From: Dictyostelium discoideum
Taxonomy: Eukaryota
DNA: 64,000 bases
Direction: 5' to 3'
Assembly: GCA_000004695.1 (NCBI GenBank)
Contig: CM000155.2
Location: 1,344,001 to 1,408,000 of the forward strand
Shown here one piece after another: positions 1 to 45,049 of the stretch. A program made the position numbers and the translations under genes. Below the pieces are notes generated by a model. The model searched no databases, was not told the DNA's origin, and saw nothing but the letters and a program-made list of their open reading frames with translations. Each line of letters starts with the position of its first letter. Position 1 is the stretch's first letter.

Positions 1-837
1 CGTTTATCACAAACGTGATATTTAACTAATTCCAAGAACTTAGTATTCATTGGTGGTACATTATCCCAAAGTAGTTGATTACAAAGTTCGAAATAAGAGG
101 TGATATCATCGGTGATACTACCGACTTTTCTTTCTTTTTTTCTCTTTTCATCATCACGAAGAATATATTCAACCGATTCTTCTAATCTTCCATTTGCCAA
201 CGGTTCAATTGCAGATAGTTTACCCAACACTCTATTCAATTTCAACTCGAGTACGGTTTTCCTAGTTTCACCCTTTAGACAGGTTTCCCTCCAATATTGA
301 CCAAACGCATCAGAGATCTCTCGACGAGTATTTACAAAATCAACTATATAGCATGCATTCTTTCCCTTGGAAACTCTACTTAACCTACCAATAGTTTGAA
401 CGGCACTGGCACCCTTTAAAGCTCTATCGACATACATCACGGCCAATGATGGCTCGTCGAAACCTGATGATAGCTTATCGGCAACAATGATCAATTGCAC
501 TCTATGTTTCTTATCATTTCTCAAGATTTCCGAGATACCATTTCTCTTTGAAAAGTATTCTGCATAACTACCATTTATCTTTTCATCATATTCCGCTTTC
601 TCTTTTTTCTTTAAACTAAACTTTGCAAATGATGCTATAATATCAAATTTTTGATTCTTTGGTAATGATTTCACCAATGATTCCAATGTTTGTTTATATA
701 ATAAAATTTGTTCTCTACTATTTGTAACTAACATTGCTCTACAATTAAATTCATCATTATTAATTTGTTCTCTTAATTTTAAAAAATGTTTTATAATATA
801 TGATGACTTTTCTTGAATTATTTTCTTTTTTTTAATA

Positions 838-880
<43 letters not shown>

Positions 881-2442
881 AAAATAGAATTAGTATTTTT
901 TTATTTTTTTATTTATATTAATAATAATACATACTTTATCATTATTTGGATGTTTTAAAATATGATAAGATGATTTATTTTCATCATTAAAAAAGGTATC
1001 ACTTGTTTTATCATTTGAAACTTTGGTTAAAATTGAAACAGTTGTATAATGATCAATACAATTCATAACAATTTTATCTTGTAATGCTTTCTCTATTGAA
1101 TAAGTATGAAATGGTACTCTTAAATTACCTCTTGTATCACCAAATAATTCTAAAGCTTTTGGTTTTGGTGTACTTGTAAAACAAAAATATGTTATATTAT
1201 TCTTTTCTCTAGTTTCACCATTTAATATTGCTTTTATTTTTTTTTTTTTTTTAAATAAAATTAAATTATTAATTAGATTATTATAAATTATTAAAAATTA
1301 TTAAAAATTATATTATATTATATTATATATATATATTTACAACTAAAAGTATTTGTCATTGATCTAATATCATCAGAAATAATTGCAATTGATTTATATT
1401 TATTTGAAATATGATCAAATCCATGAGTATCAATAACTTTTGAAAACTTTTGCATTGTTGAGATTACAACTCTAGTTTTAGCTTTTGTTAAAATCTTTTC
1501 CAATAATGCAATTGTATTTGGATGTGAAATTGATGTTAAATCATTATCTTTTAAAAATTGAGTAATAATTGAACCAAGTTGATAATCTAAATGTCTTTTA
1601 TCATTAATCACTAGTATTAAATCATATTTCAATTTACCATCTTCTAATAATCTATATAAATTTGTAATTAATGATGCAATCGTATGACTTTTACCTGACC
1701 CTGCTGCATGTTGAATTAAATAATTTTTTGAATTTTTAACTGGTTTTATTACTTGACTATTATTATTTTGATTATTATTATTATTATTATTATTATTTTG
1801 ATTATTTTGATTATTATTGTTACTACCACTTGTTGAAGAATAATTACTATGATCAGAATTTGTTGATGACGGAGCAAATAATAAACCCATTGGTGATAAA
1901 GGTGTCGCTAAAGGTGTTGCTGGTGATAATGGTATTATCTTTTTTGAATCAATTTTAAATTGTTCCACAATATTTTGAATTATTTTTACACATGCATCTT
2001 TTTGATGAAATCTAGGGATAAGTCTTTTCCAACCTTCCATAACCATTTTATCTATTGCTATACTATCTACATTTTCTATATTTACAAATTTTACTCTACT
2101 ACTATTATTATTAGTATTACCGCTACTACCACTACCACTAATATTACTACTACCACTATTACTACTACTACTACTAAATACGCCTCTAGCAGTTGGTAAT
2201 GGGCTAGTTTCTTTTGGTGGTGGTGATTTCATTTCATCATCTATATTCTCTTCTTCATCCTCTAAATCATCGAAAAAGTCATCCCCATTGTCTGATCCAT
2301 CACTATCTTGTGAATCAAATTCTAACTCATGAGATGGTATCATCTCATCTTTACCTAAAAGTGATGATGTCCTTCTTCTATTTGTTTTTGGTGTACCTGT
2401 TGTAGTAGTTGTGGTTGTTGTTGTTGTCTTATTGCTATTACT

Positions 2443-2511
<69 letters not shown>

Positions 2512-3015
2512 ATTATTATTATTTGATGATGGTACATCAAAACCAATAGTTTTAGTTTTTGGTTGATTTTTAGGTGTAGGAATTGATGAAAAAGTATTAT
2601 TATTATTATTTTTTGAACCATATACTTCAGAAGCTGATTGAGGTGATGGCATTAAAAAACTATTATGTGAAGAGACAGGGGTATGAAATGAACCAGGTGG
2701 TGAAGGTCTAAGGAAAATAGATGATGATGGTTTTTGTTGGTTTCTATAGTTTGTTGGTGATGGTGATGTTGATGAAAAACTACTTGGTACACCAAATCCA
2801 CTATAATAACTATTTGGTGATTGTTTACTTAAAAATCCAGAGAAATTTGGTGATGTCGATGTTGAACTATCCGATGATGTTGACATCATTATATTTCTAC
2901 TACTACTACTAAATTGATGAGTAGTGCTATTACTACTCCCACCACCTCCACCACCACCACTATAATGAATTCTTGGTGATGACATTGAACTATTTGATGA
3001 ATATGATGCACCTAA

Positions 3016-3048
<33 letters not shown>

Positions 3049-3696
3049 GTTATTATTATTACTACCACTACTATTGCTATTGCTATTATTATTGGTAGTG
3101 GTTGGATTTGTTTTGGGTTGGTTAAATGAAGATGATAGTGGTATACCAACAGGTCTTAAGAAGCCACTATTTGTAGTTGTTATACTATTACGAGTATTAT
3201 TTGAAGCGTTACGTAGTAGATGTTGTTGTTGTTGTTGCATTCTAGATAGCATACCACCACCAAATGATGATGGGGCTGATGAAGGTTTAGTAAATCCTCC
3301 ATTATTTGGACTACTAGACATACTAACACTTGCATTTGAATTTTTTATACTTGTCGAAGAGGATGATGATATACTCGGGGTTGGTGTTGGACGTGCTGAT
3401 TGTTTAGAAATTAAACCCTTTTTAAATGAATTGTTTGCGCTATTTCCTGCACTATTGTTATTGCTATTGCTATTGCTATTATTGCCTGTACTACCAATAA
3501 TTACAGTGGTGGTTGTTGGTATTGGTATTGGGGTTGAAGTGGTTGGAGATGAAGTTGTAATTGTTGACTTTTGCTTCAATGATGAAGAAGAGGAAGAGGA
3601 AGAAGAGGAAGAAGTTGGTGATTGTTTTGAACTTGGTATATTTATTGCTGTAGATGGTGGCTTACCACCATTCTGTTTTTTATTAGATTCCATCAT
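1..3696 (-). CDS. SF2 helicase/ATPase with type I/III restriction-enzyme R-subunit-like (HsdR/Res-type) motor domain. N/S/T-rich low-complexity N-terminal half. 3'-partial, the C-terminus runs off the window start.
   Basis: Exon 1 is 3696..1341 (ORF 1318-3696) and carries Walker A 'HAAGSGKSHT'. A GTAAAT...AG intron spans 1340..1231. Exon 2 is 1230..935 and carries a motif-III-like 'FCFTSTPKP'. A GTATGT intron starts at 934. Exon 3, about 824..1, was translated by hand from the reverse complement and gives '...IIVADKLSSGFDEPSLAVMYVDRALKGASAVQTIGRLSRV...' (motifs V-VI, Q..GR..R), continuing in frame to position 1. The exon-3 acceptor is ambiguous between 826/825 and 808/807. Confidence 0.6.
2424..2510. 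repeat. (GTT)n / (AAC)n coding microsatellite. Gives a poly-Asn tract in the helicase N-terminus.
   Basis: Uninterrupted gtt trinucleotide run in the sequence. The minus-strand ORF shows a run of about 27 N here. Confidence 0.9.
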
Positions 3697-30084: not shown

Positions 30085-30157
30085 GCTCGATTAGCTCAGT
30101 CGGCAGAGCGTGGTGCTAATAACGCCACGGTCGCAGGTTCGATCCCTGCATCGAGCA
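30085..30157 (+). tRNA. tRNA-Ile, anticodon AAU (DNA AAT), 73 nt, no intron.
   Basis: Cloverleaf read by hand:
- acceptor GCTCGAT / ATCGAGC, discriminator A
- D-stem GCTC/GAGC
- anticodon stem TGGTG/CGCCA with loop C-T-AAT-A-A
- T-arm GCAGG TTCGATC CCTGC, with internal B box GGTTCGATCCC. Confidence 0.9.
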
Positions 30158-30346: not shown

Positions 30347-31555
30347 ATGGCTGATGATCACTCAACTGAATTACAGTTAAATCATACAGATAACAACACA
30401 ACCAATACAAATAATACCTTCACAACCTCAACAACAAAAAACAAAAGTGTAAAAATCGACACACCTAAAAAACAAACCCCAACAAACCAACTTTTACTAA
30501 ACAAAGGACTTGATAATCAATTAGATATCATTGCACCTCCATCAATCACAAGACCACTCTCTTTCTTAGAAAAAAACAATAACACCATCAACATTAAGTG
30601 TTACTTTAATCAACCACTCATCCGTGAAGAATTAACCTCAAAAGATGACACAAGAATTCAACAAATTCACAAAAACATTCACAAACTCTTCGAAGATATA
30701 CTGTCGCCATCAGCATTCAAAATAATTGGTGCAACTGCCTTCGTAAATTGCAACGTTGATAAATTAACTTCAATAATCAACCTTCAAAACCAACTTGCAC
30801 TAAATATCGACAAACTCAACTATAGATTCGATATATCATCAAATGATTATGCAATCATTAAAACATTCATTAAAACGTACTCACCCAAACATGCAAACGA
30901 TGCAATTACAAACAACCTCACTAAATTCACCAGTTGTACATCAATTGAATCATTTACTGTCACATACTCATATGCTGTTGCGTTTAAAAGCTACATTATA
31001 ACATATCATCTAATTGATCACACACACAACATTGTTGATCAAAAGATCGAACAACCATCTGGTATCACAAGATATATCAAAGCTGCAACACGTAGTGTCA
31101 CTAAACACAAAATTCAACATGCAAAAAATGCAGATATGGCAACAACTATAAAAAATGCCATCACAAACCCAAACATGAACAAAAACAATCAACCACCAAA
31201 AAACAACATTAACACCCCACCAATCAACGAAATTGCAAATTCCAATCGCAATAATAACTCACTTCAAAATAGTGGTTCAAAAGCTATACTAAATGAATCA
31301 CTTGATATTAACAATCAATCCCAAAACAATAATGAAATTTCACACAAAAGTGATTCTTCAAATAATAATAACGGGAAAAACTCATTATCAATGAGCAATC
31401 CAACCGATCCAACAATTGTACCACAAAAACCTCTACAATCTCAACCAAACAAACCAAGTGCACCAACTCCAAATACAATAAATACAAGAAGAAGCAGCAA
31501 TGCCCTGACTACACAACCAGTCAATACTGGTGCTGCCAAACCTAGTAAGGTATGA
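30347..31555 (+). CDS. TRE3 ORF1 protein (402 aa).
   Basis: ORF-track entry. It precedes and overlaps ORF2 by 4 nt, the typical TRE/L1-like arrangement. Confidence 0.7.
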   Translation: MADDHSTELQLNHTDNNTTNTNNTFTTSTTKNKSVKIDTPKKQTPTNQLLLNKGLDNQLDIIAPPSITRPLSFLEKNNNTINIKCYFNQPLIREELTSKDDTRIQQIHKNIHKLFEDILSPSAFKIIGATAFVNCNVDKLTSIINLQNQLALNIDKLNYRFDISSNDYAIIKTFIKTYSPKHANDAITNNLTKFTSCTSIESFTVTYSYAVAFKSYIITYHLIDHTHNIVDQKIEQPSGITRYIKAATRSVTKHKIQHAKNADMATTIKNAITNPNMNKNNQPPKNNINTPPINEIANSNRNNNSLQNSGSKAILNESLDINNQSQNNNEISHKSDSSNNNNGKNSLSMSNPTDPTIVPQKPLQSQPNKPSAPTPNTINTRRSSNALTTQPVNTGAAKPSKV

Positions 31556-34288
31556 GCTCAAAAATCAACTTTATAACATGGAATTGTAGAGGATTCACTG
31601 AAAACCCAAACAATCAACACAATTCCTACCAAAAAGCTGTTGACACACTACAACTACTTATTTCAAAACTTCCACCTCGTCCAACAATCTCAATACTCAC
31701 TGAACTCAATTCATCACCATTACAACTTAAACATGATTTTCCCGATCACATCATCTCTGTCACCAAACGAGGAAATGGTGTAATCATCATTAACCATAAC
31801 CCAAACACACTCAAACTCAAACACATATCAACAATTGATGGTAGAGCTATTTTAGCAGACGTTATATTTCCAAATCAATTACCAATTGGTATTCTTGGAA
31901 TTTACGCACCAGCATCAAATAATACCATCAAAAAGAATTCATATGCAACTTCACTACAAACACTTCTCCACAACCACTCAACAAACCCAATACCAAACCA
32001 ATCCCAACATGTATCTATTATCGCAGGAGATTTCAACTGTATCCACAACGACAATTCACTATTAGACGATATTATCCAATCCTACACATACCAACACCAT
32101 CTAATTGATCAAGGTGAATTTAAAAACACTCCAACTCATACACATGGCAACAGATTAGATAGAATATATACTCAATACAATAGAATAGACCCTGAAAATA
32201 TATATACACAAGTCCACCAAATTCCATCTTCATTATCAGATCATAATCCAATATCAACAACAATTTCTTCACCTTTTCAAATAAATAAACATAAGAAAAG
32301 ATGGATATTATCACCTGGTACTGCAAATGACCATGAAGCAATCAATATTATCAATCATTTAATAACTAATCACAATAACACATCAATCAATCAATTTACA
32401 AACTGGTCAAAAGTAAAATCAAAAATTATTAAAACTCTAAAAAACTATCAATATAACAAAGACAAACAAACTCAACGTGCAAAACAAATACTATTAGAAA
32501 AAGCAGCAAAATTCAAACATCTTGAAGAACAATGCATCGCTGAATACAATATTATATGTAACAAAAACAAATTACATCAAAACCACACAAACATATTAAA
32601 AAAACATATAAATTTAGAAATACCTAGCAAGTATCTATCAGCAATACTAAACAAAAGATCAAAAGATGCAAAAATTGAATCAATCCAATATGGTAACATC
32701 ATTACATCCGACCCCGACCAAATTGAAAATGCGTTTGTTGAATTCTACACAAATCTATATAGCTTACAAATATGTTGTCCAATTACTCACCAGCTCATGC
32801 TAAACACATGGCCCATCATAAAAAATGAATATTGGAATGGTTTAGACTCACCATTTATACAAGATGAAGTTGAAGCTGCAATTAAAACCTGTAACCCCAA
32901 CAAATCACCCGGTCCAGATGGCGTTACAAATGCATTCTACATTAATCATCTAAACCAAGTTAAACCAATTCTCACTACATTATTCAACGATATACTAGAA
33001 AATCCTCACCACATCACAACAGAATTCACAGAAGGTCTTATACACACAATATACAAGAAAGGCAACCCCTTACTCATATCAAATCGTCGTCCCATTACAC
33101 TTCTAAACACTGATTACAAGATCCTCTCCAAAGTAATCAATGCACGTCTTCTGAGAATACTTCCTTTCATCATCAACAACAACCAAACTGGTTTCGTACC
33201 CCACAGATTCATCATAGACAACATCATCAACATCAATGAATTAATCAACTACCTCAAATCTAAAAACCTCCCTGGTATCATCACACTATTTGACTTCTTT
33301 AAAGCATTTGACTCTATCTCTCACGATAGTATTAAAAGAACATTAATTCATATTGGTATACCAATAAAATTAATAAATTTAATCCACAAGCTATTATCTG
33401 ACTCACAAGCAAAAATTTCAATTAATGGTAAAACGACCAGAAAATTCGATATTAAAAGAGGTGTAAAACAAGGTGACCCAATCTCAGCCACTTTATTTGT
33501 AATTGTAATTGAAATATTAGCAAGAACAATAAATGCAGACAATTCAATAATTGGATTACCAATTTCACCCAATCCACAAATTAAAATCAAATTTACCCAA
33601 TTTGCAGACGACTCTACAACATACAACATCAACTACGAACAACAACAACAATCAATCAAACATTTCGATAATTTCTGCGCTTCAACATCATCATCTTTAA
33701 ATTTTGACAAAAGTGCAATAATAGAAATCAACCCCCACAAAATCACTGATAAACACATAATAAACAACATTCCACAATCAAAAAGAATTCCAATAACCAA
33801 AAAAGATCAATCAGAAAGAGTTCTTGGCTATTTCTTTAATCATAATGGTTTACATAGGAAATTACCAGAAACAATGAAAACACTGATTAAATCATTAGTG
33901 CTATGGAAAACTAGTGGCACAACATTAAAAACAAAAACAACCATCATAAACACCTACTCACTATCACCAATAACATATTTATCATACCTTGAAGAATTTA
34001 CAAAAGATGAAGAAATTCAAATTAATAAATTAATCTCATGGTTTATGAATTCTCCCGCAAATTCTGAATCACCAACTCTCGATACCAATTCCATTGAAAA
34101 CAACACATCAACCATCCATTCACGTGCAAAAATACCTTTGATGTGTTATGATAGATCATTAAAACCATTAAAAGAAGGAGGTTGGGGTATGTGGAATATC
34201 CAATTACGACAAGTTGCTCAAAAGATTTGGATATACAACAGATTTTTACAAATGCATAAATCTGCAAACAATTCAATATACATGATAA
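31552..34288 (+). CDS. TRE3 ORF2 (APE endonuclease + reverse transcriptase). 3'-partial, truncated by the N gap.
   Basis: 957-aa ORF running into NNN. EN motifs sit at the N-terminus. The RT region reads 'SNRRPITLLNTDYKILSKVINARL...' and 'KFTQFADDSTTYN'. Confidence 0.75.
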
Positions 34289-34388
34289 NNNNNNNNNNNN
34301 NNNNNNNNNNNNNNNNNNNNNNNNNNNNNNNNNNNNNNNNNNNNNNNNNNNNNNNNNNNNNNNNNNNNNNNNNNNNNNNNNNNNNNNN
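34289..34388. other. Assembly gap, 100 N.
   Basis: Run of n characters. It falls inside repeated-element DNA. Confidence 1.
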
Positions 34389-34431
34389 TAATTTTTTTTT
34401 TTTTTCATTTTTTTTTTCTAATTAATTTTTA

Positions 34432-34810
34432 TTAATTTATTTTTATTAACTCCCTGAGTTGTTCAATTGCTTGATTTACCATATCACTGTAAACACTGCA
34501 CACAATTGAATTTTTTCTAGCTTTGTTACCTCTGGTGCATTTGATGTTTTTGCATTTTCCTTTGTATACAAAAAAGTCCAAATATAATTCGTTTTCTATT
34601 ACAGTTTTTACACAATGTTGGTGAAATTGTTTTGATTTTAATTCTAATGCTTCTAACATCATATTTGGATTTTTAACGATTAAAGCATCACCACTATTTA
34701 CATATAGTACTTTGGCTGCTTTTTCGAGGAATTTAGTCAAATTTTCCTCTGAATCTAACTATTCTTCATTGCCATATTCAATGGCTAAATTTCTTAAGAG
34801 TTTTATCGAA
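34432..34810 (-). pseudogene. ORF of unknown function, interrupted by an in-frame TAG. Possibly the second or terminal ORF of the adjacent DNA transposon.
   Basis: ORF 34432-34740(-) gives 'LDSEENLTKFLEKAAKV...CKNIKCTRGNKARKNSIVC...'. The same frame continues upstream as 'MIEELIDSIKLLRNLAIEYGNEE' and is separated only by a TAG at 34741-34743. It lies between the N gap and the integrase gene. Confidence 0.3.
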
Positions 34811-35066
34811 TCTATTAATTCTTCGATCATTCTTTTTTTTTGAAATTTTTTTTTATTTTGTTTTTTCAATTTTTTTTTTTTATTTTGTTTTTTCAATTTT
34901 TTTTAAGTTTTATTTTTTTTTATTTTTTTTTATTTTTTTTAACAAATGTAATTTTTTTTTATTTTTTTCAATTTTTTTTTTTTTTTAATTTTTAATTTTT
35001 TTTTTTTTTTTTAATTTTTTGTGTTGATTTGTGTTTTTTTTGTTTTTTTGATTTGGCCACTTGTTT

Positions 35067-37360
35067 TTATTTTCTAATTTCCCCATACCCCCTTCTATTA
35101 ATTGCAACCAAATCAAGTTCTAATTTTTGTGTCCTTGTTAACTTTGTTTTTGCAACTTTTTTTGAAGGTATCACATTAACGATTTTTCCTATTGATGGTG
35201 ATTTGGAAGGTGATTTAAATGGTGATTTAAAAGGTGAATTGGAAGGTGATTTAAATGGTGAATTGGAAGGTGAAATGGATGGTGATTTGGAAGGTGATTT
35301 AAATGGTGATTTGGAAGGTGATTTAAATGGTGATTTAAATGGTGAATTGGAAGGTGAAATGGATGGTGATTTGAGAGGTGATTTGGATGGTTTAGAATGT
35401 GATTTTAAAGGAGGTTTATTAACAATTGGTATCTTATGAGGACGGCCTCTGAGACGTTTAACAGTTGTTACTATACCACTACCAGATTGTGGTATAGTAT
35501 ACGATGGTATTATTTGCACTTGAGGTATTGGTGGTACTATTTCTTTTAAATTCATATCCTTTCTCAAACAATTCATTAAATTTGGCGCTGTTGGATTATT
35601 ATTTAAAAATGGGAGTATTTCTTCTTGTTCCATTTCATTATTGAGTTTGTGTTGAAATGGATTATCGTTAATGATAGGTGGAATATTTGATGGATTGTTA
35701 AGAGCATCTTCCAAAACCCTAAATGGATCATTTTGTGTTACCAATTGATGCAAGTTGAAATTGGATAAATCCTTACCAAGATTTTTAATAAACTGAACCA
35801 GAAATTCAATAACTTTCCCATCATTATTTAAATAAAGACCAGAAGTAAAAGAATCAATATCTTTTTGTATGTTTGGCGATGTTCTAAAAATATCAACTGT
35901 TGATTGTTTATAAAGAACCAACTTGTTACCTCCTACAAAACCAGAGTATAAACCTTTTTTTTGAAGGCTATTGATTCCATCTTCCAAAAATTCAAGTTTA
36001 TAAAGTTGTTTAGTGTCTTCCTGTATTACCTTATGAATTTTACACAAAATCAATATTTTCTATTAGAATTAAATATAAAATTTGTTAATTATTACTGTTT
36101 CATATATTATTAATCTTTATGTTTTAATTACTTACATTATTTTTTTTAATTTCTAGAAAGAGTACAGTATCACCAACTTTCAATCCCTTTGGTGGTTTTG
36201 AATTCCATTGATTTTGGTAACTTGTGAGATTTTCAAGAATAATAGCTGTTCTTTCTTCTTTTGAAACATCTGAAACACCAATTGATTGAGAGTCTTGTTC
36301 TGATTGAACATTAATAAACAAAGGAACAATACCAACAGCTTGAGATGGTTTCATTTTAATTGTTCTTGTTTTTGTATTATTGTAATCATACAAAGCTTGT
36401 TTTAATAGTTCAGAAAGAGACCTAGAAGTACCATCAAGAAAACTAAAATTTATTTATAAATGATTAATTAATAAACATATCGATAATTTATATTGTTCAC
36501 AATATCATACTCTTGTTGTTTTAATTTTGAGATCCTCTCCTTGATAGTTCGATTCAATCTTTCTACCATACCTTGAGTTGTTGGTGTACGAGGAGCTCCA
36601 TGTGCTGACTTGGAGCCTGGAAAAAGTTTTAGGAATTCTTTTTGGACTTTGTTTTTAAATTCACGTCCATTATCGCAGTGCCATACTTTCACAGGTTTGC
36701 CAAAGTACGTGAGAGCCAAAAAATTGTATATGGGAACTGTTCTCTTTGTTGTCAAACATCTAAAAAATAAATGATAATTAAAATAAAAAAAGAAAACTAA
36801 TAAATTAATAAATAAAAAATAAATACCTTCCAGTAGCAAATTTTGTAAAAGAATCTATGCATAGAATAATGTAAACAACATCGGTGTCGTACGGTTGTAC
36901 AGAGTCATATTGGATAAGATCATCTAGTTTAGTTAGTATCTTTTCATTATCATCATCGTATGTAACTTTTTCTTTATGTTCACCTTTAATTGATGTTAAA
37001 TCATAAACCAATCTTGAGTATTCCTCGGTATCTACAATTGGAGCAAAATCCTTTGTTATACCTATTAATTTATTTAAATTATTAAAAGAGTTTTAATATA
37101 AAAGTTACAAAACATCATATAAAAATGATTGATACCAAACCTTTTATTCTATTTCGTTGGCAAATGTCACACGTATCTACTGCATCAGATACAAAAGAAT
37201 ACAATCCCATATTATAATATTTAGTCTTGTAGTTCCCATAGGTTGCATCTCTTCCTATATGACCTTTATGCATTTCTTCCCAGAGTGATACCATTCTATA
37301 ATCATTAATTACTTCTAAACACACTTCTTTTGATATATTTCTATCTCCGCCACAATTCAT
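35067..37360 (-). CDS. Retroviral/Ty3-type integrase-like protein (probable transposase), 667 aa, five exons: N-terminal HHCC zinc finger, D,D(35)E catalytic core, C-terminal AT-hook and SPxK repeats.
   Basis: Structure: join(37360..37141,37061..36827,36759..36511,36442..36136,36059..35067). The four introns are 79, 67, 68 and 76 nt. Their donors are GTTTGG, GTATTT, GTATGA and GTAAGT, all with AG acceptors and mutually consistent phases 1/2/2/0.
Residues:
- zinc finger 'HKGHIGRDATYGNYKTKYYNMGLYSFVSDAVDTCDICQRNRIK'
- core 'RLVYDLTSI...VYIILCIDSFTKFATGRCLTTKRT...VWHCDNGREFKN...HGAPRTPTTQGMVERLNRTIKE'
- AT-hook 'KRLRGRPHKIP'
- '(SPFKSPSKSP)n'
The ORF track shows the five pieces as separate overlapping ORFs in different frames. 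Confidence 0.75.
35204..35395. repeat. Tandem 12-bp repeat (GGTGATTTRRAW, about 16 units) encoding S-P-x-K-type repeats in the last exon of the integrase gene.
   Basis: On the plus strand 'ggtgatttaaat ggtgatttggaa ggtgaattggaa...' recurs. Minus-strand translation gives 'SPSKSPFKSPSNSPFKSP...', and the spurious plus-strand ORF 35029-35439 gives '(GDLEGDLN)n'. Confidence 0.9.
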
Positions 37361-37579
37361 GACTTTTTTTTCAATTCTAAATAATTTTTCTTTTCTGTTT
37401 CTGTTTTTTATTGGTCAGAATTTAAAAAATGATTGTGTTATTGTAAGGAAAAATATTTACTCATCATGTAAAAATTTATAATTTTTATGTTTAGTATTTT
37501 CAAAATTATTATCTTCAATAAATTTTAAATAATTTATAATTTCATTTATTTTATCTTGTTTCATTTTGGGAAAATGAAA

Positions 37580-37614
<35 letters not shown>

Positions 37615-37810
37615 TGTTGGGGAAAAAAAAAAAAAGTTTTGGCGCAAAAAAAAAAAAAAAAATTAAATTAAAAAAAAAAAAAATTAAATTAAAAAAAAAA
37701 AAAAATAAAAAAACTTATATAGAACTAATAATCAAATAAAAGATAATAATTTAATAAACTTTATTTGTTTTTTGAAAAAAAAAAAATTTAGGGTCAGTGA
37801 TTTTTTTTTT

Positions 37811-37870
37811 TCACTACGCTACTGTAGTGAAATTAAATAATAAAATTCACTACGCTACTGTAGTGAAATT
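37811..37870. repeat. Two direct copies of the 24-bp TCACTACGCTACTGTAGTGAAATT, 12 bp apart. Each contains a 6-bp inverted repeat CACTAC...GTAGTG. Candidate transposon subterminal repeats or transposase-binding sites.
   Basis: Read directly: copy 1 at 37811-37834, copy 2 at 37847-37870. Confidence 0.85.
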
Positions 37871-37876
37871 TTATTG

Positions 37877-38979
37877 AAAATTCCCTACAACAATAATCAT
37901 ATTCAAAATTTAGATAAACAAATTGATATCAATAATAAGTTATTAAATGAATCAAATAATTTATTTAAACCATTAGAAGATAAACACACTGAAAATGTAA
38001 ATACAATCACAAAAGTATTTAAAGAACTCTCCAAATTATTACCAATCATTGAAATTGATAAAATCAAACAATTAGTAACACTCTATGATGAAAATAAAGA
38101 TATCAATACAAACATTTCAACCATTATACATGATAATTTAAATAATATTAATTTAATTACAAATAAATATAAAAATACAATAAATCAAATAAATATTGAT
38201 CAAATCATTAATAACAATAAAAATAATTATCAACATATTGAAATATTAAAACATTGTCATCAATCACAATTATTAATAAAAGATAATCAAAATGAAAATA
38301 AAATCAAAGAATTAATAAATCAATATAAAAATGTAAATATTGTAAATAATAGTAAACAAGTTAAAGAATCAATTAAAGAAATATTTGAAATTAGCGATTC
38401 TCTCTCTATTGCAAATGTAAAAGACCCAAAAAGAGTTACTGGTAAATATTTTAAAAAAATATAAATATAATAATAATTGTGGTATTTGTTTTATTTTAAT
38501 TATTAATATTAAATTATTTATTTAAAGTTACAGGAAAAGGATATTTTATTTATAAAAATGATTCTATCATTCCAAATGGTACTACTCATGTAGCGATTGC
38601 ACCAAGTGTTAGAACAATTAAAATAGGTTCAATTCCAACATCGATTCAATATTTGGTATTACTTGATGGATTTAATGTTCAACTAAAAGAAGGTATGCTA
38701 CCGCAATCAATTATATATCTATATGTTGGTGCAATTAAAAAACCATTGTTAAAAGGTTCAATACCAAATAGTGTTACTGGTTTGTTTTTATTAGATGGAT
38801 TTAATCAAGAAATAACTGAAATACCACAATCATCTTGTTTATACCTTTTTGATACTCCTTTGACAAATTTCCCATTTCAAAATCTAATTTACAGAAGCCC
38901 AAAATATAAACAACAACTCACTCACTCAAAGGTTGGTAATTGGGATGGTCGTAATTATGATCCTATAATTGAACTTTAA
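37877..38979 (+). pseudogene. 5'-truncated member of the B-box zinc-finger / FNIP-repeat protein family. It lacks the B-box and N-terminal region but keeps the coiled-coil part, the conserved intron and the FNIP-repeat exon.
   Basis: Structure: join(37877..38441,38528..38979). The ORF begins only at a TTG directly after the 24-bp repeats. It aligns with the intact paralogue from 'FQNLDHCLESIKE...' onwards ('IQNLDKQIDINNK...DPKRVTG' | 'VTGKGYFIYKNDSIIPNG...LLDGFNVQLKEG...LLDGFNQEITEIP'). There is no ATG and no B-box upstream. Confidence 0.6.
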
Positions 38980-39270
38980 AATATATTTATGTTTGGTAAT
39001 AACAAATGGAAATCCATCTATAAATTTCTCTTTTTTTTATTTCATTATTTTTTTAAAATTGTTTTAAAACGATAAATGAAGAAAAAAATTTATTTTAAAT
39101 TTCCACATTTAAGTTTACCACTTTTTTTATTTTGAACATAAAATTTATTTTCCAAAGAGTTAAATAAATCACATTATTATAAAATTACACATTTTTGTTT
39201 TATTTTTTTCCTTTTTGAGATAAAAATTGTTTTTTTTATATCTAAATATTATCATTAAAAATGAAACAAC

Positions 39271-39325
<55 letters not shown>

Positions 39326-39639
39326 AAGAATACCAAAAAAAGAACTCTAACCAAAATAATAAAAATCATTAAAAAAAAGTGATTTTTATTTTTTACATTC
39401 TATTTTAATTACCTTTTATATGTAGAATGTATCTACCAAATCCAGAAAAATAATTTCCATATGAGCAAAGAAATTGTATTAAATAAAATTTATTTTTATT
39501 AACTATTTAGGCGATTTAAATTTTAAATGTATTTTTTTTTATATAAAATGTAAAAAAACTCGATTTTAAATTTATAGAATAGTATTTTATAATTAAAAAA
39601 ACAATAACACAAATTAAAGAAGATTCCAAAAACTATGAT

Positions 39640-40660
39640 ATGAAATGTGAATTTCATGAAGAAAATAAATATAAATTGATATGCCCAACATGTAAAGTTG
39701 CAATGTGTAAAGTTTGCATAATCAGTAAAGGTCATCGTGGTCATGAAACTGAGTTGATTACAAAAGATAGTATTGAACCAATAACTAAAGAATTTAAAGA
39801 TATTAATTTCAAATCAATACAAGAATGTTCAAATAATATTAAATAAAATTTAGAAATATCAAATAAAAAGTTTTATAAAATTGAAAAAGAATATTCAAAA
39901 AATGAAAACTTTGGAACCAAATGAATTCAAGAAAATAAACAAATTATTACAAAAAACAGAAAATGATAAAATTAAAGAACTTTCAACTCATTTTAATACA
40001 AATAAAGAAATCAATACAACATTTCAACTTTGGCAAATAAAAATTTAAAAAATATTGATCAAATTCAAAAGAAATTAAAAGAATTAAGAGACTTTAATGT
40101 GGAATCATTAAATGATAATGATAACAATAGTAATGATAAGGATAAGATTTTAGATTTTTTAAAACATTATCATCAAACCAAAATTGTTTTAAAAGAAATT
40201 TCTTATGAAAGTGAAAGTGAAATTAATGAATTATTAAGTGAATATGAATATATTACCAAACGGTACTCCATATTTAGAATTAGGACCAAGCATAAAGAAT
40301 TTGAAAGCTGGTTCTATTCCTACAACTGTAGTCTATATTATTTTACTAAATGGATTTAATTTCCAACTTTTAAATGGTATTTTACCAAGTTCACTTCAAG
40401 TATTATATGTTGGAGCTATCGAAAAACCATTATTGAATGGTTCAATACCATCAAATGTTTCCACACTCGTTTTATTGGATGGATTCAATCAAAAAATATC
40501 TGAAATACTACCAAGGATTAGTGTTGTATATGTTGGTGATATTCATTCAGAAGAAATTCCACTAAAAAGTACTATCCAAATTAAAAAATCCCCTTCTTGT
40601 AAACAACAATTCAACAATAGCAATTATGTATACGAATGGGAAGGATGTAAGGAAAAATAG
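39640..40660 (+). pseudogene. Degenerate paralogue of the B-box / FNIP-repeat family: frameshifted and intron-less.
   Basis: The B-box 'CEFHEENKYKLICPTCKVAMCKVCIISKGHRGHE' (ORF 39640-39846) ends at a stop. The coiled-coil part is in another frame (40030-40359). The FNIP part is in a third frame (40238-40660). The segment matching exon-1 end, intron and exon-2 start of the paralogues is deleted. Confidence 0.6.
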
Positions 40661-41732
40661 TTTAATTAGAGGAAATTAAAAAAACAATAAATAATATTAG
40701 TTATTAGAAAGATTTTTAAAAGAGATTATTATAATTTTTTTTTTTTTTCTAAAAATCATTATATAATTTGTTGTTGCTGTTTCTCTTTTTGTTGCTTTCT
40801 AATTCTGCTAATTTCTTTTCTATTTCTTGTTCTTTTCTCAACTTGATCCATGTTTTCTAATTTTTCACCTTTTTCAGCTTTTTCTTTTTGTTAAATTTAA
40901 GTTTTCTTTGTTTTTCTTGTTGTTTTTCACGAGTTCTTTAATTCTTGTTTTTCTTTTGCTTCGTTATCTCTTCTTTTTCCTCTTTCTTTCTTTGTTTTTC
41001 TTTTTGTTGTTTGTTGTTGTTTTTAAAATTTTATTTCTTTTCAATCTTTTACTCATATTCTAATTGTAATTGTTTATCTTTTTCAAGTTTTTCTTTTATT
41101 TCTCTTTCTTTTTCAATTGAGCTTATTGTTATTGGTTTCTATTTTTTTCTTCTTTTTTTCTTCTATTTCTATTTCTCTTTCCAATTCCATTTGAGTCAAT
41201 TTTTCTTGTTTTTCTCTTTGATATTTTTTTTTGGTCTTTTTGAATGCATTCTAGGTCACTTTGTTCTTGTTTCTTTTTCCAATGGTTTTTTATTTTCAAA
41301 TTGTTTCTCTGATTGAAAGATTGATTTCACGTCTACTGAGAATGCAGATTGTTTCTCTTTCTAATTGAAGACCAGATTGATATTATGTTGTAATATTACC
41401 CATTGTTGTTGATGAATTGACATCAGAATCAGCAGAATTGAAACAGCTAAACAATATAAATTATTCCATCTTGAGGGTAGACGTAATATTAGAGTTAAAA
41501 GTTGATTTAAATCATTGATAGTGATGGAAAAAAAAAAAAAAATGAAAAAAAAAAAATAAAAAAAAATAAAAAATAAAAAAAAAAAAAATAAACTAGATTA
41601 ATACGAGACAGATCAATTAAATATTTTTTAAAAAAAATAATAATAATAATAAAATAAAATTATTTATTTGAAAAAAAATAAAAATAAAAATTAATTAAAT
41701 TATAATTTTTTGATTTTAATTATTTTTGGAAG

Positions 41733-41764
<32 letters not shown>

Positions 41765-41821
41765 GAATATTTTTTTTTTTTTTTTTTTTTTTTGATTTTA
41801 TTTTTATATTTATATTTAAAA

Positions 41822-43600
41822 ATGGATGACTATAGTATTTTATTTAAAATTATTAAAACTGAAGAGATTAAAAATAATAATGAAATAGATATAATTTTTT
41901 TTAAAGTTTGGAGAAATAAATTTATTTTAAATGAAATTAATCTTCATCAAAGATTATATAATTTAAATGAAAAAAAGAAATTTAAAATTTGTAAAGATTT
42001 TCATGAATTTAAATATAAAGAATATGTAAAAGATTTAACTATTTCAAGTAATGATGAAAATACATTTACAAATCAATTTAAAGTACCAAAAGGTATTTTC
42101 AAATTAACATTTTCAAATTTAAATAGAGAATTTAATATTAGAAATGTAATTCCATCAACGGTAACTCATTTAAAATTTGGTGATGAATTTAATAAACTTT
42201 TGTCACCTGGTGATATTACAAAGGGTGTTAAACATTTAGAATTTGGTAAAAAATTCAATCAACCATTTACAAATGCAGGTGTAATTCCATCAACTGTTGA
42301 AACTATAAAATTTGGAAATTTTAATAAAATTTTAAAAAAGGGTGATATACCAATGGGTGTTAGATCGGTAGAGTTTGGTTCACATTTTGATAAACCATTA
42401 AAGAATTTACCATTATCAATTGAATCATTAAAATTTGGTAGTAGATTTGGAAGAGCATTCGATGCATCACAATTACCAAGTTTGATAACTAAAATCTATG
42501 GATTTGCATCAACAGAACCATTGAAAAGCTACCAAATTCCAAGAGTTACAAGTTTACATTTCGATTCATATTATCGTCATAAATTTGAAGCTGATACATT
42601 ACCAAATGGATTATTACACTTGGATTTAAAAGATTATTCAGAAGTATATGTAATTGAAAAAGATGTTTTACCAAAAACATTGGAAAAGTTGGAACTTCCT
42701 TATAGATATAATCATAGAATTGAAATTGGTGTTTTACCTCAAACCTCTTTGAAAACTTTATACTGTTATTCAGATTACCAATATCCTTTAGAAGATAATG
42801 TTTTACCAAAATCATTAACAGAATTAACATTTGGTATTAAATCAGATATAATATTCACCAATTGTAAATTACCATCAAATATTAAAAATTTAGAATTAAA
42901 TTATTTTAATGATCCATTAAAAGATATTTTACCAAGTAAATTAGAATCATTGAAAATTAAAGGACTAAATCAGAATATTGAATTGGGTAATTTACCAAAA
43001 TCATTAAAGGAAATAACATTCTCACATAATTTTAATAACATTTTAGAAGTGAATGTTTTACCTTTAAATTTGGTTAAATTGGACTTAGGTGGTTATAATC
43101 AACCTCTACGTAAAGGTGTCATTCCAAATAGTGTTTTAATTTTAAAATTAAATACATTTGATAAAATTTTAAAAGTTGGTGATTTACCAAACTCAATAAT
43201 TTCATTGGAAATGGTGTGTTATAATCAACCTTTAATATCAAGAGTTTTACCAAATGCTTTAAAGAAATTAAAATTTGGAGATTTCAATTCAAGATTTGAA
43301 ATTGATTCTTTACCAAATACATTAACTCATTTGGAATTTAAAAGATTTAAACAAATTATTCCATCTGGTTATTTACCAAATAGTATTGAATATTTAAAAT
43401 TAGGTGATTATTTTAATCAACCTTTAAAAGGTGTAATACCATCATCAGTTACAAGTTTAAATATTGATAATTATTATTTCGATCAAGAATTATACCATTT
43501 ACCAAAATCTTTAAAAATTTTATACTTTGATAAATTAAAAAAGGATAAATTATTATCAACTTTACCAATTGACCATTCAATAATAATATTTAATGAATAG
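41822..43600 (+). CDS. FNIP-repeat-containing protein, about 590 aa with about 20 tandem FNIP repeats.
   Basis: The repeats follow the pattern '...L.FG..FNQP...G.IP.SV..L.FG' throughout ORF 41726-43600. The true start is most likely ATG 41822 ('MDDYSILFKII'). The upstream part of the ORF is a poly-T read-through ('MEDIFFFFFF'). Confidence 0.8.
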   Translation: MDDYSILFKIIKTEEIKNNNEIDIIFFKVWRNKFILNEINLHQRLYNLNEKKKFKICKDFHEFKYKEYVKDLTISSNDENTFTNQFKVPKGIFKLTFSNLNREFNIRNVIPSTVTHLKFGDEFNKLLSPGDITKGVKHLEFGKKFNQPFTNAGVIPSTVETIKFGNFNKILKKGDIPMGVRSVEFGSHFDKPLKNLPLSIESLKFGSRFGRAFDASQLPSLITKIYGFASTEPLKSYQIPRVTSLHFDSYYRHKFEADTLPNGLLHLDLKDYSEVYVIEKDVLPKTLEKLELPYRYNHRIEIGVLPQTSLKTLYCYSDYQYPLEDNVLPKSLTELTFGIKSDIIFTNCKLPSNIKNLELNYFNDPLKDILPSKLESLKIKGLNQNIELGNLPKSLKEITFSHNFNNILEVNVLPLNLVKLDLGGYNQPLRKGVIPNSVLILKLNTFDKILKVGDLPNSIISLEMVCYNQPLISRVLPNALKKLKFGDFNSRFEIDSLPNTLTHLEFKRFKQIIPSGYLPNSIEYLKLGDYFNQPLKGVIPSSVTSLNIDNYYFDQELYHLPKSLKILYFDKLKKDKLLSTLPIDHSIIIFNE

Positions 43601-43817
43601 TTTTTTAAATAAAAATTAAAAAAAAAATATATAAAAAAAAAAAAAAAAAGGGTGAATTTAAATGTTTTTCAAAATTATGTATCTAAAAATAAATAATTTA
43701 ATCTAAAAAAATATTAATTCATTTAACAGGGTGGGTGTAAAATAAAAAAAAATATTTTATGCCAACTTTTTTTTTTTTTTTAATTTTTATTTTTTATTTA
43801 TAATAGTTTCTAAACAT

Positions 43818-43851
<34 letters not shown>

Positions 43852-43933
43852 TTTCAAAATTTTATTTTTTTTATTTTTTTTATTTTTTATTTTTAACTTT
43901 TTTTTAAAAAGTGTTACTTCACTTTAGTTCACA

Positions 43934-44066
43934 ATGGACGATATTCATAATAATAATGAAAACATTCAAAATGATTATGACAATATTGTAATATTATCAG
44001 AACAAGAATCAATTAAAAATCAAATTGACATTGATTTTAGTATTGAACAATTTAGTGATAATAATA

Positions 44067-44097
<31 letters not shown>

Positions 44098-44100
44098 TAG

Positions 44101-44140
<40 letters not shown>

Positions 44141-45049
44141 GATAATGATAATGATAATGATAATGATAATATAGATAATACCAGTATTATTTGTGAAGAT
44201 TATGACGATAAAATAAATATTATTAGCGATAATAATATTAATAATAATATTAATAATAATAATAATATTAATAATATTAAATACGATAATAAATGTATTT
44301 TTCATAAAGAACAAGATTATAGATTCATTTGTAGTGATTGTCAAGTACCAGTATGTGATATGTGTATAGTTAGTTCAGAATATCATAGATCTCATGTATT
44401 TGATTTAATTAATCAAGTTAATACAGCTACATTATTTCAAGATTTTAAGAATAAACATTTTCAAAATTTAGATCATTGTTTAGAGAGTATTAAAGAATCA
44501 GTCAACGATTCTAATGAAATCTATAAGAATTTAAATGAAGAACATAATCAAAATGTAAATATTGTAACTAAAGAATTTAAAGAGATTCACTCACTTTTAG
44601 AATCAATTGAAAAGGATATCATTAACAGATTAAATAGTCATCATGATGAAAATAAAGAAACCAATGAAAAAATTACAACAACTGCAAATGATCACATTAA
44701 AAATGTTGATCAATTATTAAGTAAATATAGATACTCAATCAATGATTATAATATTGATGAAATTTTTAATAATAGTAATAATAGCAATAATAATAATTGT
44801 GGTAGTAGTAATCGTCAACATATAGAATTATTAAAACATAGTTATCAAACCCAAATATTATTAAATGAACAAGATGATGATAATACACTCAATAAATTAA
44901 TAAGTGAATATAATAAAATTTCATTAATAAATTCAATTGATCTCGTTAAAAATTCAATTAAAGATACTTTTCAAATTCAACCAAATAGTCTTTATTCTGA
45001 AGATTCAAAAGATCCAAAAAGAGTTAAAGGTAATTAATTAATTTTTATA

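Follow-up and report, generated by a model that had tools for sequence, protein, structure and literature searches.

What kind of element carries the integrase-like gene on the minus strand near the middle of this 64,000-nucleotide stretch of Dictyostelium discoideum DNA (contig CM000155.2, positions 1,344,001 to 1,408,000)? The whole stretch, referred to below as the window, is very A/T-rich, and the proteins it encodes match D. discoideum. An earlier interpretation made from the letters of the DNA (the sequence-only reading) had preferred a DNA transposon of the Tdd-4/Ginger2 type, with a gypsy-like integrase as transposase. Sequence comparison indicates that the feature almost certainly represents a single copy of Tdd-4. 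This D. discoideum transposon is 3.8 kb long, belongs to class II (cut-and-paste) and is listed in Repbase under the group Ginger2/Tdd; the Repbase TDD-4 sequence is AAFI02000006.1:352615-356458. The element is already known; the identification is correct and the feature is ordinary.

The assignment to Tdd-4 follows from the transposase, because the 256-amino-acid (aa) HHCC-DDE block of TDD4 (XP_629668) recurs without a mismatch in the window product (residues 74-329, 256/256), and the same match bears out the preference of the sequence-only reading. The TDD4 and TDD5 reference blocks were taken from Additional file 1 of Bao, Kapitonov and Jurka 2010 (PMC2836005). In that paper TDD-4 is described as an element of 3,839 bp with more than 10 copies, a 5-bp target-site duplication (TSD), TGTNR termini and a transposase with H2C2 and DDE, without GPY/F or YPYY; Tdd-4 was assigned there, in 2010, to the Ginger2/Tdd group (PMC2836005). 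The identity is further supported by its agreement with the TGTTG terminus, the inverted repeat, the 5-bp TSDs of sister copies and the many near-identical copies described below.

The extent of the element was determined by comparison with five copies taken from another strain (L001-L005). In L001, L002, L003 and L004 both termini are present and inverted; L005 lacks the right terminus within the stretch examined. The window copy is 99.4% identical to positions 1-3492 of the full-length copy L002, and the differences are nearly all in homopolymer lengths. The alignment with full-length elements is continuous from 37892 to 34389, the last base before a run of Ns. The right inverted repeat, made up of the terminal 329 bp, is missing from the window; adding it gives a unit length of approximately 3,833 bp (3,504 + 329). 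L002-L004, the copies without internal insertions, measure 3,815-3,831 bp between the termini TGTTG...CAACA. The sequence-only reading had described Tdd-4 as about 3.8 kb long and intron-containing.

The 5′ terminus of the window copy is TGTTG at 37892, and not 37872, where the element had been thought to end. The terminal inverted repeat was found by comparison with the full-length copy L001, both ends of which begin with TGTTGTAGGGAATTTTC and are, in inverted orientation, near-perfect matches over 145 bp; across some 320 bp their identity is about 81%. In the window copy weaker inverted similarity extends beyond the 145-bp core to approximately 37572. A general repeat search of the 30-42 kb interval did not reveal the inverted repeat amid A/T-rich low-complexity matches. 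The right end of Tdd-4 closes with CCCTACAACA. The repeat contains two copies of the 23-bp unit TTTCACTACAGTAGCGTAGTGAA, which has 8-bp palindromic arms, and in full-length copies both units are also found at the right end, within the inverted repeat. The sequence-only reading had taken these units (37868-37846 and 37832-37810) for a palindrome-containing direct repeat flanking the gene; they sit within the terminal inverted repeat, and we infer that they are candidate transposase-binding sites.

Three of the four copies with both termini are flanked by a 5-bp TSD (TCATC, CATAT, ATGAC); L003 has none. The two clusters formed at 90% have 27 members in all; at least 12 of these are gene models of strain AX4, located on several chromosome-sized contigs, and near-identical Tdd-4 gene models are also numerous in another strain. 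In the literature 19 Tdd-4 elements were counted, and in rblA-null data Tdd-4 is up 25-fold (PMC3386910).

These numbers bear on the fallback of the sequence-only reading, a host-domesticated integrase, that is, a single-copy, immobile gene derived from a transposon or a retroelement. An intact reading frame with spliceosomal introns would suit such a gene, as would the AX4 annotation, in which the copies are labelled just 'hypothetical protein / Integrase catalytic domain-containing protein'. The family is, however, multi-copy and dispersed: many copies, 99-100% identical, occupy unrelated loci, are bounded by inverted repeats and in most cases have 5-bp TSDs, and the window copy begins with the same TGTTG terminus and interrupts a host gene. 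A domesticated, Gin-1-like integrase was rejected on copy number, inverted repeats and target duplications, and we give it hardly any weight.

Next to its ends, the element is characterized by its gene. Five open reading frame (ORF) pieces had been joined in the sequence-only reading through four GT...AG introns (79, 67, 68 and 76 nt) to give a protein of 667 aa. Splicing of the minus-strand pieces 37360-37141, 37061-36827, 36759-36511, 36442-36136 and 36059-35067 reproduced this product exactly, at the same coordinates; the introns between them are all GT..AG, with a G+C content of 7-15%, and leave the frame intact. The four introns were right, but an upstream exon (37564-37461) and its intron had been overlooked. 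The ATG at 37564 opens an extra exon of 104 nt, which a 60-nt GT..AG intron links in frame to the rest, giving at least five introns and a product of 715 aa. An alternative acceptor 6 nt downstream would lengthen this intron to 66 nt. Exon 1 is identical to the N-terminus of the annotated proteins P0016, P0017 and P0023, and in an alignment of relatives its peptide M.Q.KINEI..Y is kept in Tdd-5-type proteins that are approximately 43% identical overall. The 715-aa model is one residue apart from P0016 (715 aa, annotated four times identically in another D. discoideum assembly), and the same single-residue difference separates the 667-aa model from DDB_G0283133 of strain AX4. Relative to four full-length sister copies the sole coding substitution is Thr to Lys at 36350 in exon 5; Lys at this position also occurs in the TDD4 reference XP_629668 and in DDB_G0284829 (partial), and being shared by both it does not single out a locus. 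Exact searches with the gene models, and searches for the contigs that encode P0003 and P0023, gave no position for the window in AX4.

An RNA-independent test of the exon/intron model was made with L008, a diverged Tdd-4 copy of 89% nucleotide identity. Exon 1 had no insertions or deletions (indels), the approximately 1,860 exon nucleotides outside the SPXX repeat had one (75 nt) and the SPXX repeat had two (51 and 3 nt), all three exon indels being multiples of three. Introns 2-5 had indels of 1, 2, 5, 1 and 3 nt. Because the exon indels keep the frame and the intron indels break it, the model is supported without RNA. In the same comparison the ratio of nonsynonymous to synonymous substitution rates (dN/dS) was 0.43 over 689 codons. 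The results support a transposase gene that appears to be under coding constraint and to have at least five short GT..AG introns.

Motifs and a predicted structure characterize the product as an integrase of retroviral type. An N-terminal extension precedes the HHCC domain and the DDE core of RNase-H fold; a predicted SH3-like C-terminal domain and a long tail follow. The zinc ligands are H79, H82, C112 and C115 (715-aa numbering), and the catalytic residues are D142, D229 and E266. D142 and E266 are invariant in 12 relatives, and D229 is kept in every one of these in which the region is present. The Pfam domain Integrase_H2C2 scored above its cut-off (32.1 versus 25.5 bits), rve_3 scored under its own, and the only Pfam domains found in the element were those of integrases. 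A sequence search of the PDB matched the catalytic cores of the integrases of Rous sarcoma virus (RSV), human immunodeficiency virus type 1 (HIV-1), human T-lymphotropic virus 2 (HTLV-2) and prototype foamy virus (PFV) at about 1e-5, with HCDNGREF aligned at the second catalytic Asp and QGMVERLN at the Glu. An AlphaFold model of residues 1-445 (mean predicted local distance difference test score, pLDDT, 71.7) consists of an N-terminal β extension, the helical HHCC domain, an α/β core and a C-terminal β domain; its top PDB matches in Foldseek were the Ty3 and PFV integrases (E ~4e-13). In the tail, the minus strand encodes an AT-hook, RGRP (35450-35439), and 16 tandem SPXX repeats (35381-35190), the latter by a 12-nt DNA repeat. 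No GP[YF] or YPYY motif was found in the product sequence. The HHCC zinc finger, the DDE residues, the AT-hook and the SPxK repeats named in the sequence-only reading were each located in the product; the canonical DDE spacing that it also claimed was not. D142 and D229 are 87 residues apart, because a Dictyostelium-clade-specific insertion of approximately 27 residues lies between the first two strands, and the D229-E266 spacing of 37 leaves 36 residues between, versus 35 in the canonical arrangement.

An integrase-like protein with the Ty3 enzyme as top structural match, and a reverse transcriptase gene less than 1 kb from the assembly gap, could also be expected of a decayed long terminal repeat (LTR) retrotransposon of the Skipper or DGLT-A type with a frameshifted integrase ORF. 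The sequence-only reading had argued against such a fragment, and the present data agree. The breaks in the frame are exact, frame-keeping GT..AG introns that behave as non-coding DNA in the comparisons, the ends are inverted and not direct repeats, and there is no reverse transcriptase or RNase H inside the 3.8-kb unit. The nearby reverse transcriptase belongs to a two-ORF non-LTR element with an apurinic/apyrimidinic (AP) endonuclease, which is oriented opposite to the transposase gene and follows a tRNA gene. An LTR-retroelement fragment was rejected on the inverted ends, the intron behaviour and the content of the unit, and its probability appears negligible.

The coordinates of the element, of its gene and of the adjoining features are collected in Table 1.

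Table 1. Features of the transposon copy and its immediate surroundings (window coordinates)
Feature	Position	Strand	Basis or remark
DNA transposon copy, assigned to Tdd-4	34389..37892	-	3,504 bp present; aligned with full-length copy L002
5′ terminal inverted repeat, 145-bp core, starts TGTTGTAGGG	37748..37892	-	Alignment of the left and right ends of L001
First 23-bp unit, TTTCACTACAGTAGCGTAGTGAA, 8-bp palindromic arms, inside inverted repeat	37846..37868	-	Sequence read directly
Second 23-bp unit, same motif, inside inverted repeat	37810..37832	-	Sequence read directly
Presumed 5-bp target-site copy ATAAT (plus strand)	37893..37897	.	Read directly; one side visible
Exon 1 (ATG at 37564)	37461..37564	-	In-frame GT..AG join to exon 2
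Intron 1, 60 nt, GT..AG	37401..37460	-	60-nt form gives the ...DENRKEK... junction of annotated models
Exon 2, HHCC zinc-binding domain	37141..37400	-	Pfam Integrase_H2C2
Intron 2, 79 nt, GT..AG	37062..37140	-	Splice-site reading
Exon 3, catalytic D142 and clade-specific insertion	36827..37061	-	Splicing, alignment of relatives
Intron 3, 67 nt, GT..AG	36760..36826	-	Splice-site reading
Exon 4, catalytic D229 and E266	36511..36759	-	Aligned to HIV-1 integrase D116/E152 and to RSV integrase
Intron 4, 68 nt, GT..AG	36443..36510	-	Splice-site reading
Exon 5	36136..36442	-	Splicing, sister-copy comparison
Intron 5, 76 nt, GT..AG	36060..36135	-	Splice-site reading
Exon 6, to stop codon 35069-35067; predicted β-strand (SH3-like) domain, AT-hook, SPXX repeats	35067..36059	-	
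Candidate intron 6, 257 nt, GT..AG, 10% G+C	34832..35088	-	Spliced in AX4 model DDB_G0292352
3′ coding-like region	34435..34831	-	G+C 0.27-0.29 versus 0.04-0.10 around
100-N assembly gap hiding right inverted repeat and second target-site copy	34289..34388	.	
Interrupted host gene remnant, B-box/FNIP-repeat family	37893..38979	+	Aligned to paralogue at 43934-45037

The 5′ boundary of the transposon coincides with a break in a host gene. From its residue 2 onward the remnant aligns with the paralogue at 43934-45037, starting at residue 175 of the latter, with 40% identity (E 5e-37). It lacks the counterpart of residues 1 to approximately 174 of the paralogue, a part that contains the B-box. A FNIP repeat occupies 38653-38979; the B-box is found in the paralogues at 39640 and 43934. 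By this alignment Tdd-4 interrupts the coding sequence of a member of the B-box/FNIP-repeat family, with the junction at 37892/37893. The sequence-only reading had noted a host gene truncated at the element boundary, and the paralogue puts the break exactly there. The remnant stands in a tandem array of B-box zinc-finger/FNIP-repeat paralogues (37893-45037, plus strand), with further starts near 39640 and 43934.

At the other end the element runs into the assembly gap. The sequence-only reading had tied the matching inverted repeat to this gap: both ends were found in the sister copies, but the right end of the window copy falls inside the gap. Elsewhere in the window there is no other Tdd-4 fragment and no right inverted repeat. 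The 100-N run hides the right inverted repeat and probably also the B-box exon of the split host gene. Alternatively, the right end may be deleted and not merely unsequenced, for example through insertion of the neighbouring retrotransposon, which would make the copy dead and immobile. The sequence left of the gap, retrotransposon ORF2 and neither host gene nor inverted repeat, would suit such a deletion, and so would the absence of the right inverted repeat from the rest of the window. On the other hand, the alignment with full-length elements reaches the last base before the N run, an ending typical of an assembly break in repeated DNA, and 100-N gaps are placeholders of unknown size. We consider a deleted right end unlikely, although it deserves to be kept in mind; a Tdd-4 copy cut off by the assembly is the reading we prefer.

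The neighbour to the left of the gap is a plus-strand non-LTR retrotransposon, which begins approximately 190 bp downstream of a tRNA-Ile(AAT) gene (30085-30157, plus strand). Its ORF1 extends from 30347 to 31555; ORF2 (31552-34288), with Exo_endo_phos and RVT_1 domains, enters the N gap. TRE3 typically occupies such sites (PMC5633606), and by position the element fits the TRE3 type.

By analogy with integrases and with IS3/IS481 transposases, a Tdd-4 insertion might proceed in three steps. The protein would bind the 23-bp palindromic motifs that recur within each 145-bp inverted repeat; it would cleave at the TG...CA termini; and the 3′ ends would be joined to the target with a 5-bp stagger, giving 5-bp duplications such as those of the sister copies. 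Because the frame of the window copy is intact and the copies differ almost only in homopolymer lengths, the sequences fit a family that was recently mobile or is still so. Recent mobility bears on strain-to-strain variation in Dictyostelium.

Several points weigh against the reading given here. The Pfam score for rve (26.6) is below the gathering threshold (32.6). The assignment was made with a protein block and not by nucleotide comparison to the GenBank entry of Tdd-4, and the right inverted repeat and second TSD of the window copy are hidden by the gap. The splicing pattern is deduced from the sequence and from gene models of others, and both the binding of the 23-bp motif and the 5-bp staggered cut are deduced by analogy. 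Finally, for the last intron and the C-terminus there are three differing public models.

In the first of these (DDB_G0292352) a GT..AG intron is removed between 35088 and 34832, yielding ...RRG|MIEEL...GNEE*; P0003, which ends ...AINRRG|MIEELIDSIKLLRNLAIEYGNEE, crosses the same 35088/34832 junction. In the second a separate gene of 110-114 aa is annotated (L002-L004), and in the third (DDB_G0287117) the region serves as an exon fused after ...LELDLVA. The stop codon at 35069-35067 is followed by 235 nt of 10% G+C and then by 397 exon-like nucleotides (34831-34435), which comprise MIEEL...GNEE (34831-34762), an in-frame TAG (34761-34759) and an open frame of 108 codons (34758-34435). The candidate intron 6 stretch is strongly diverged and indel-rich relative to L008. 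A Pfam search with the 3′ ORF gave no matches. The 108-codon ORF had no match in L006, L007 (Tdd-5-type) or L008, of which L006 and L008 end before the position of the ORF and the third copy is 43% diverged. An AT...AA or AT...AG intron starting from ATTAAT (about 35103) could possibly bring the 108-codon frame into phase with the long frame, and such a junction would fit the AT-AA intron that Wells is said to have described. That 34831-34435 encodes a C-terminal extension or a second small protein, by way of an AT-type splice or readthrough, seems to us quite improbable; the annotations of this region disagree and may be wrong. If it did, the 3′ part could be the switch between regulator and transposase that Wells reportedly proposed for Tdd-4 in 1999.

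Some observations concern copies in other D. discoideum DNA. The Tdd-4 copy of L001 (GCA_054883475.1) carries three insertions of one non-coding repeat of approximately 756 bp, and a fourth copy, inverted, lies just outside the element (all four in L001: 5112-5867, 7303-8056, 9112-9867 and 10978-11732). The repeat is bounded by the inverted repeats CACAGCAAAGAAAAATGCACC...TTCTTCGCTGTG; its four copies are 98.5-100% mutually identical, one insertion having a 30-bp deletion. It looks like a very recently active miniature inverted-repeat transposable element (MITE), and it is absent from the window. L006 (3189-6096) and L003 (6500-8075) each have several Tdd-4/Tdd-5 termini (TGTTGTAGGG / CCCTACAACA) in the space of a few kb, which indicates nested or clustered insertions of Tdd-4/Tdd-5.

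For the window, the analysis yields a revised gene model with six or more exons and a product of 715 rather than 667 aa, the true boundary at 37892, and the link between the gap and the split gene.

Among known systems the closest is Tdd-4 itself, which Wells is said to have described in 1999 (NAR 27:2408) as having 145-bp inverted repeats, TG...CA ends, 15 SPXX repeats and six introns, reportedly five GT-AG and one AT-AA with alternative 5′ sites. The window copy shares the identical transposase core, the TGTTG terminus, the 145-bp core of the inverted repeat, five GT..AG introns beside a doubtful sixth, the unit of approximately 3.8 kb, the 5-bp TSDs seen in sister copies and the multi-copy state. 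It differs in the number of SPXX units (16 counted here versus the reported 15) and in lacking the final 329 bp owing to the assembly gap, and otherwise in nothing of substance.

A sister family at 43% identity forms its own 90% cluster and includes DDB_G0290955, named Tdd-5 (PMC3386910); the TDD5 block (AF298206) is visibly close to this cluster. Tdd-5 has the same architecture, the same TGTTGTAGGG terminus, an HHCC-DDE integrase and the conserved exon-1 peptide, whereas its sequence is only about 43% identical and a Thr/Pro-rich tail replaces the SPXK repeats. With metazoan Ginger2, Ginger1 and gypsy-type integrases (Ty3, PFV) the window product shares the combination of H2C2, DDE and a β-strand C-terminal domain, along with TGTNR termini. 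Metazoan Ginger2 elements differ in having 4-bp TSDs (PMC2836005). Ginger1 and gypsy integrases carry GPY/F and YPYY, both of which are absent from the window product, as published for Ginger2 (PMC2836005). Retroelement integrases, unlike the Tdd-4 transposase, belong to a Pol polyprotein and have LTR ends as their substrate.

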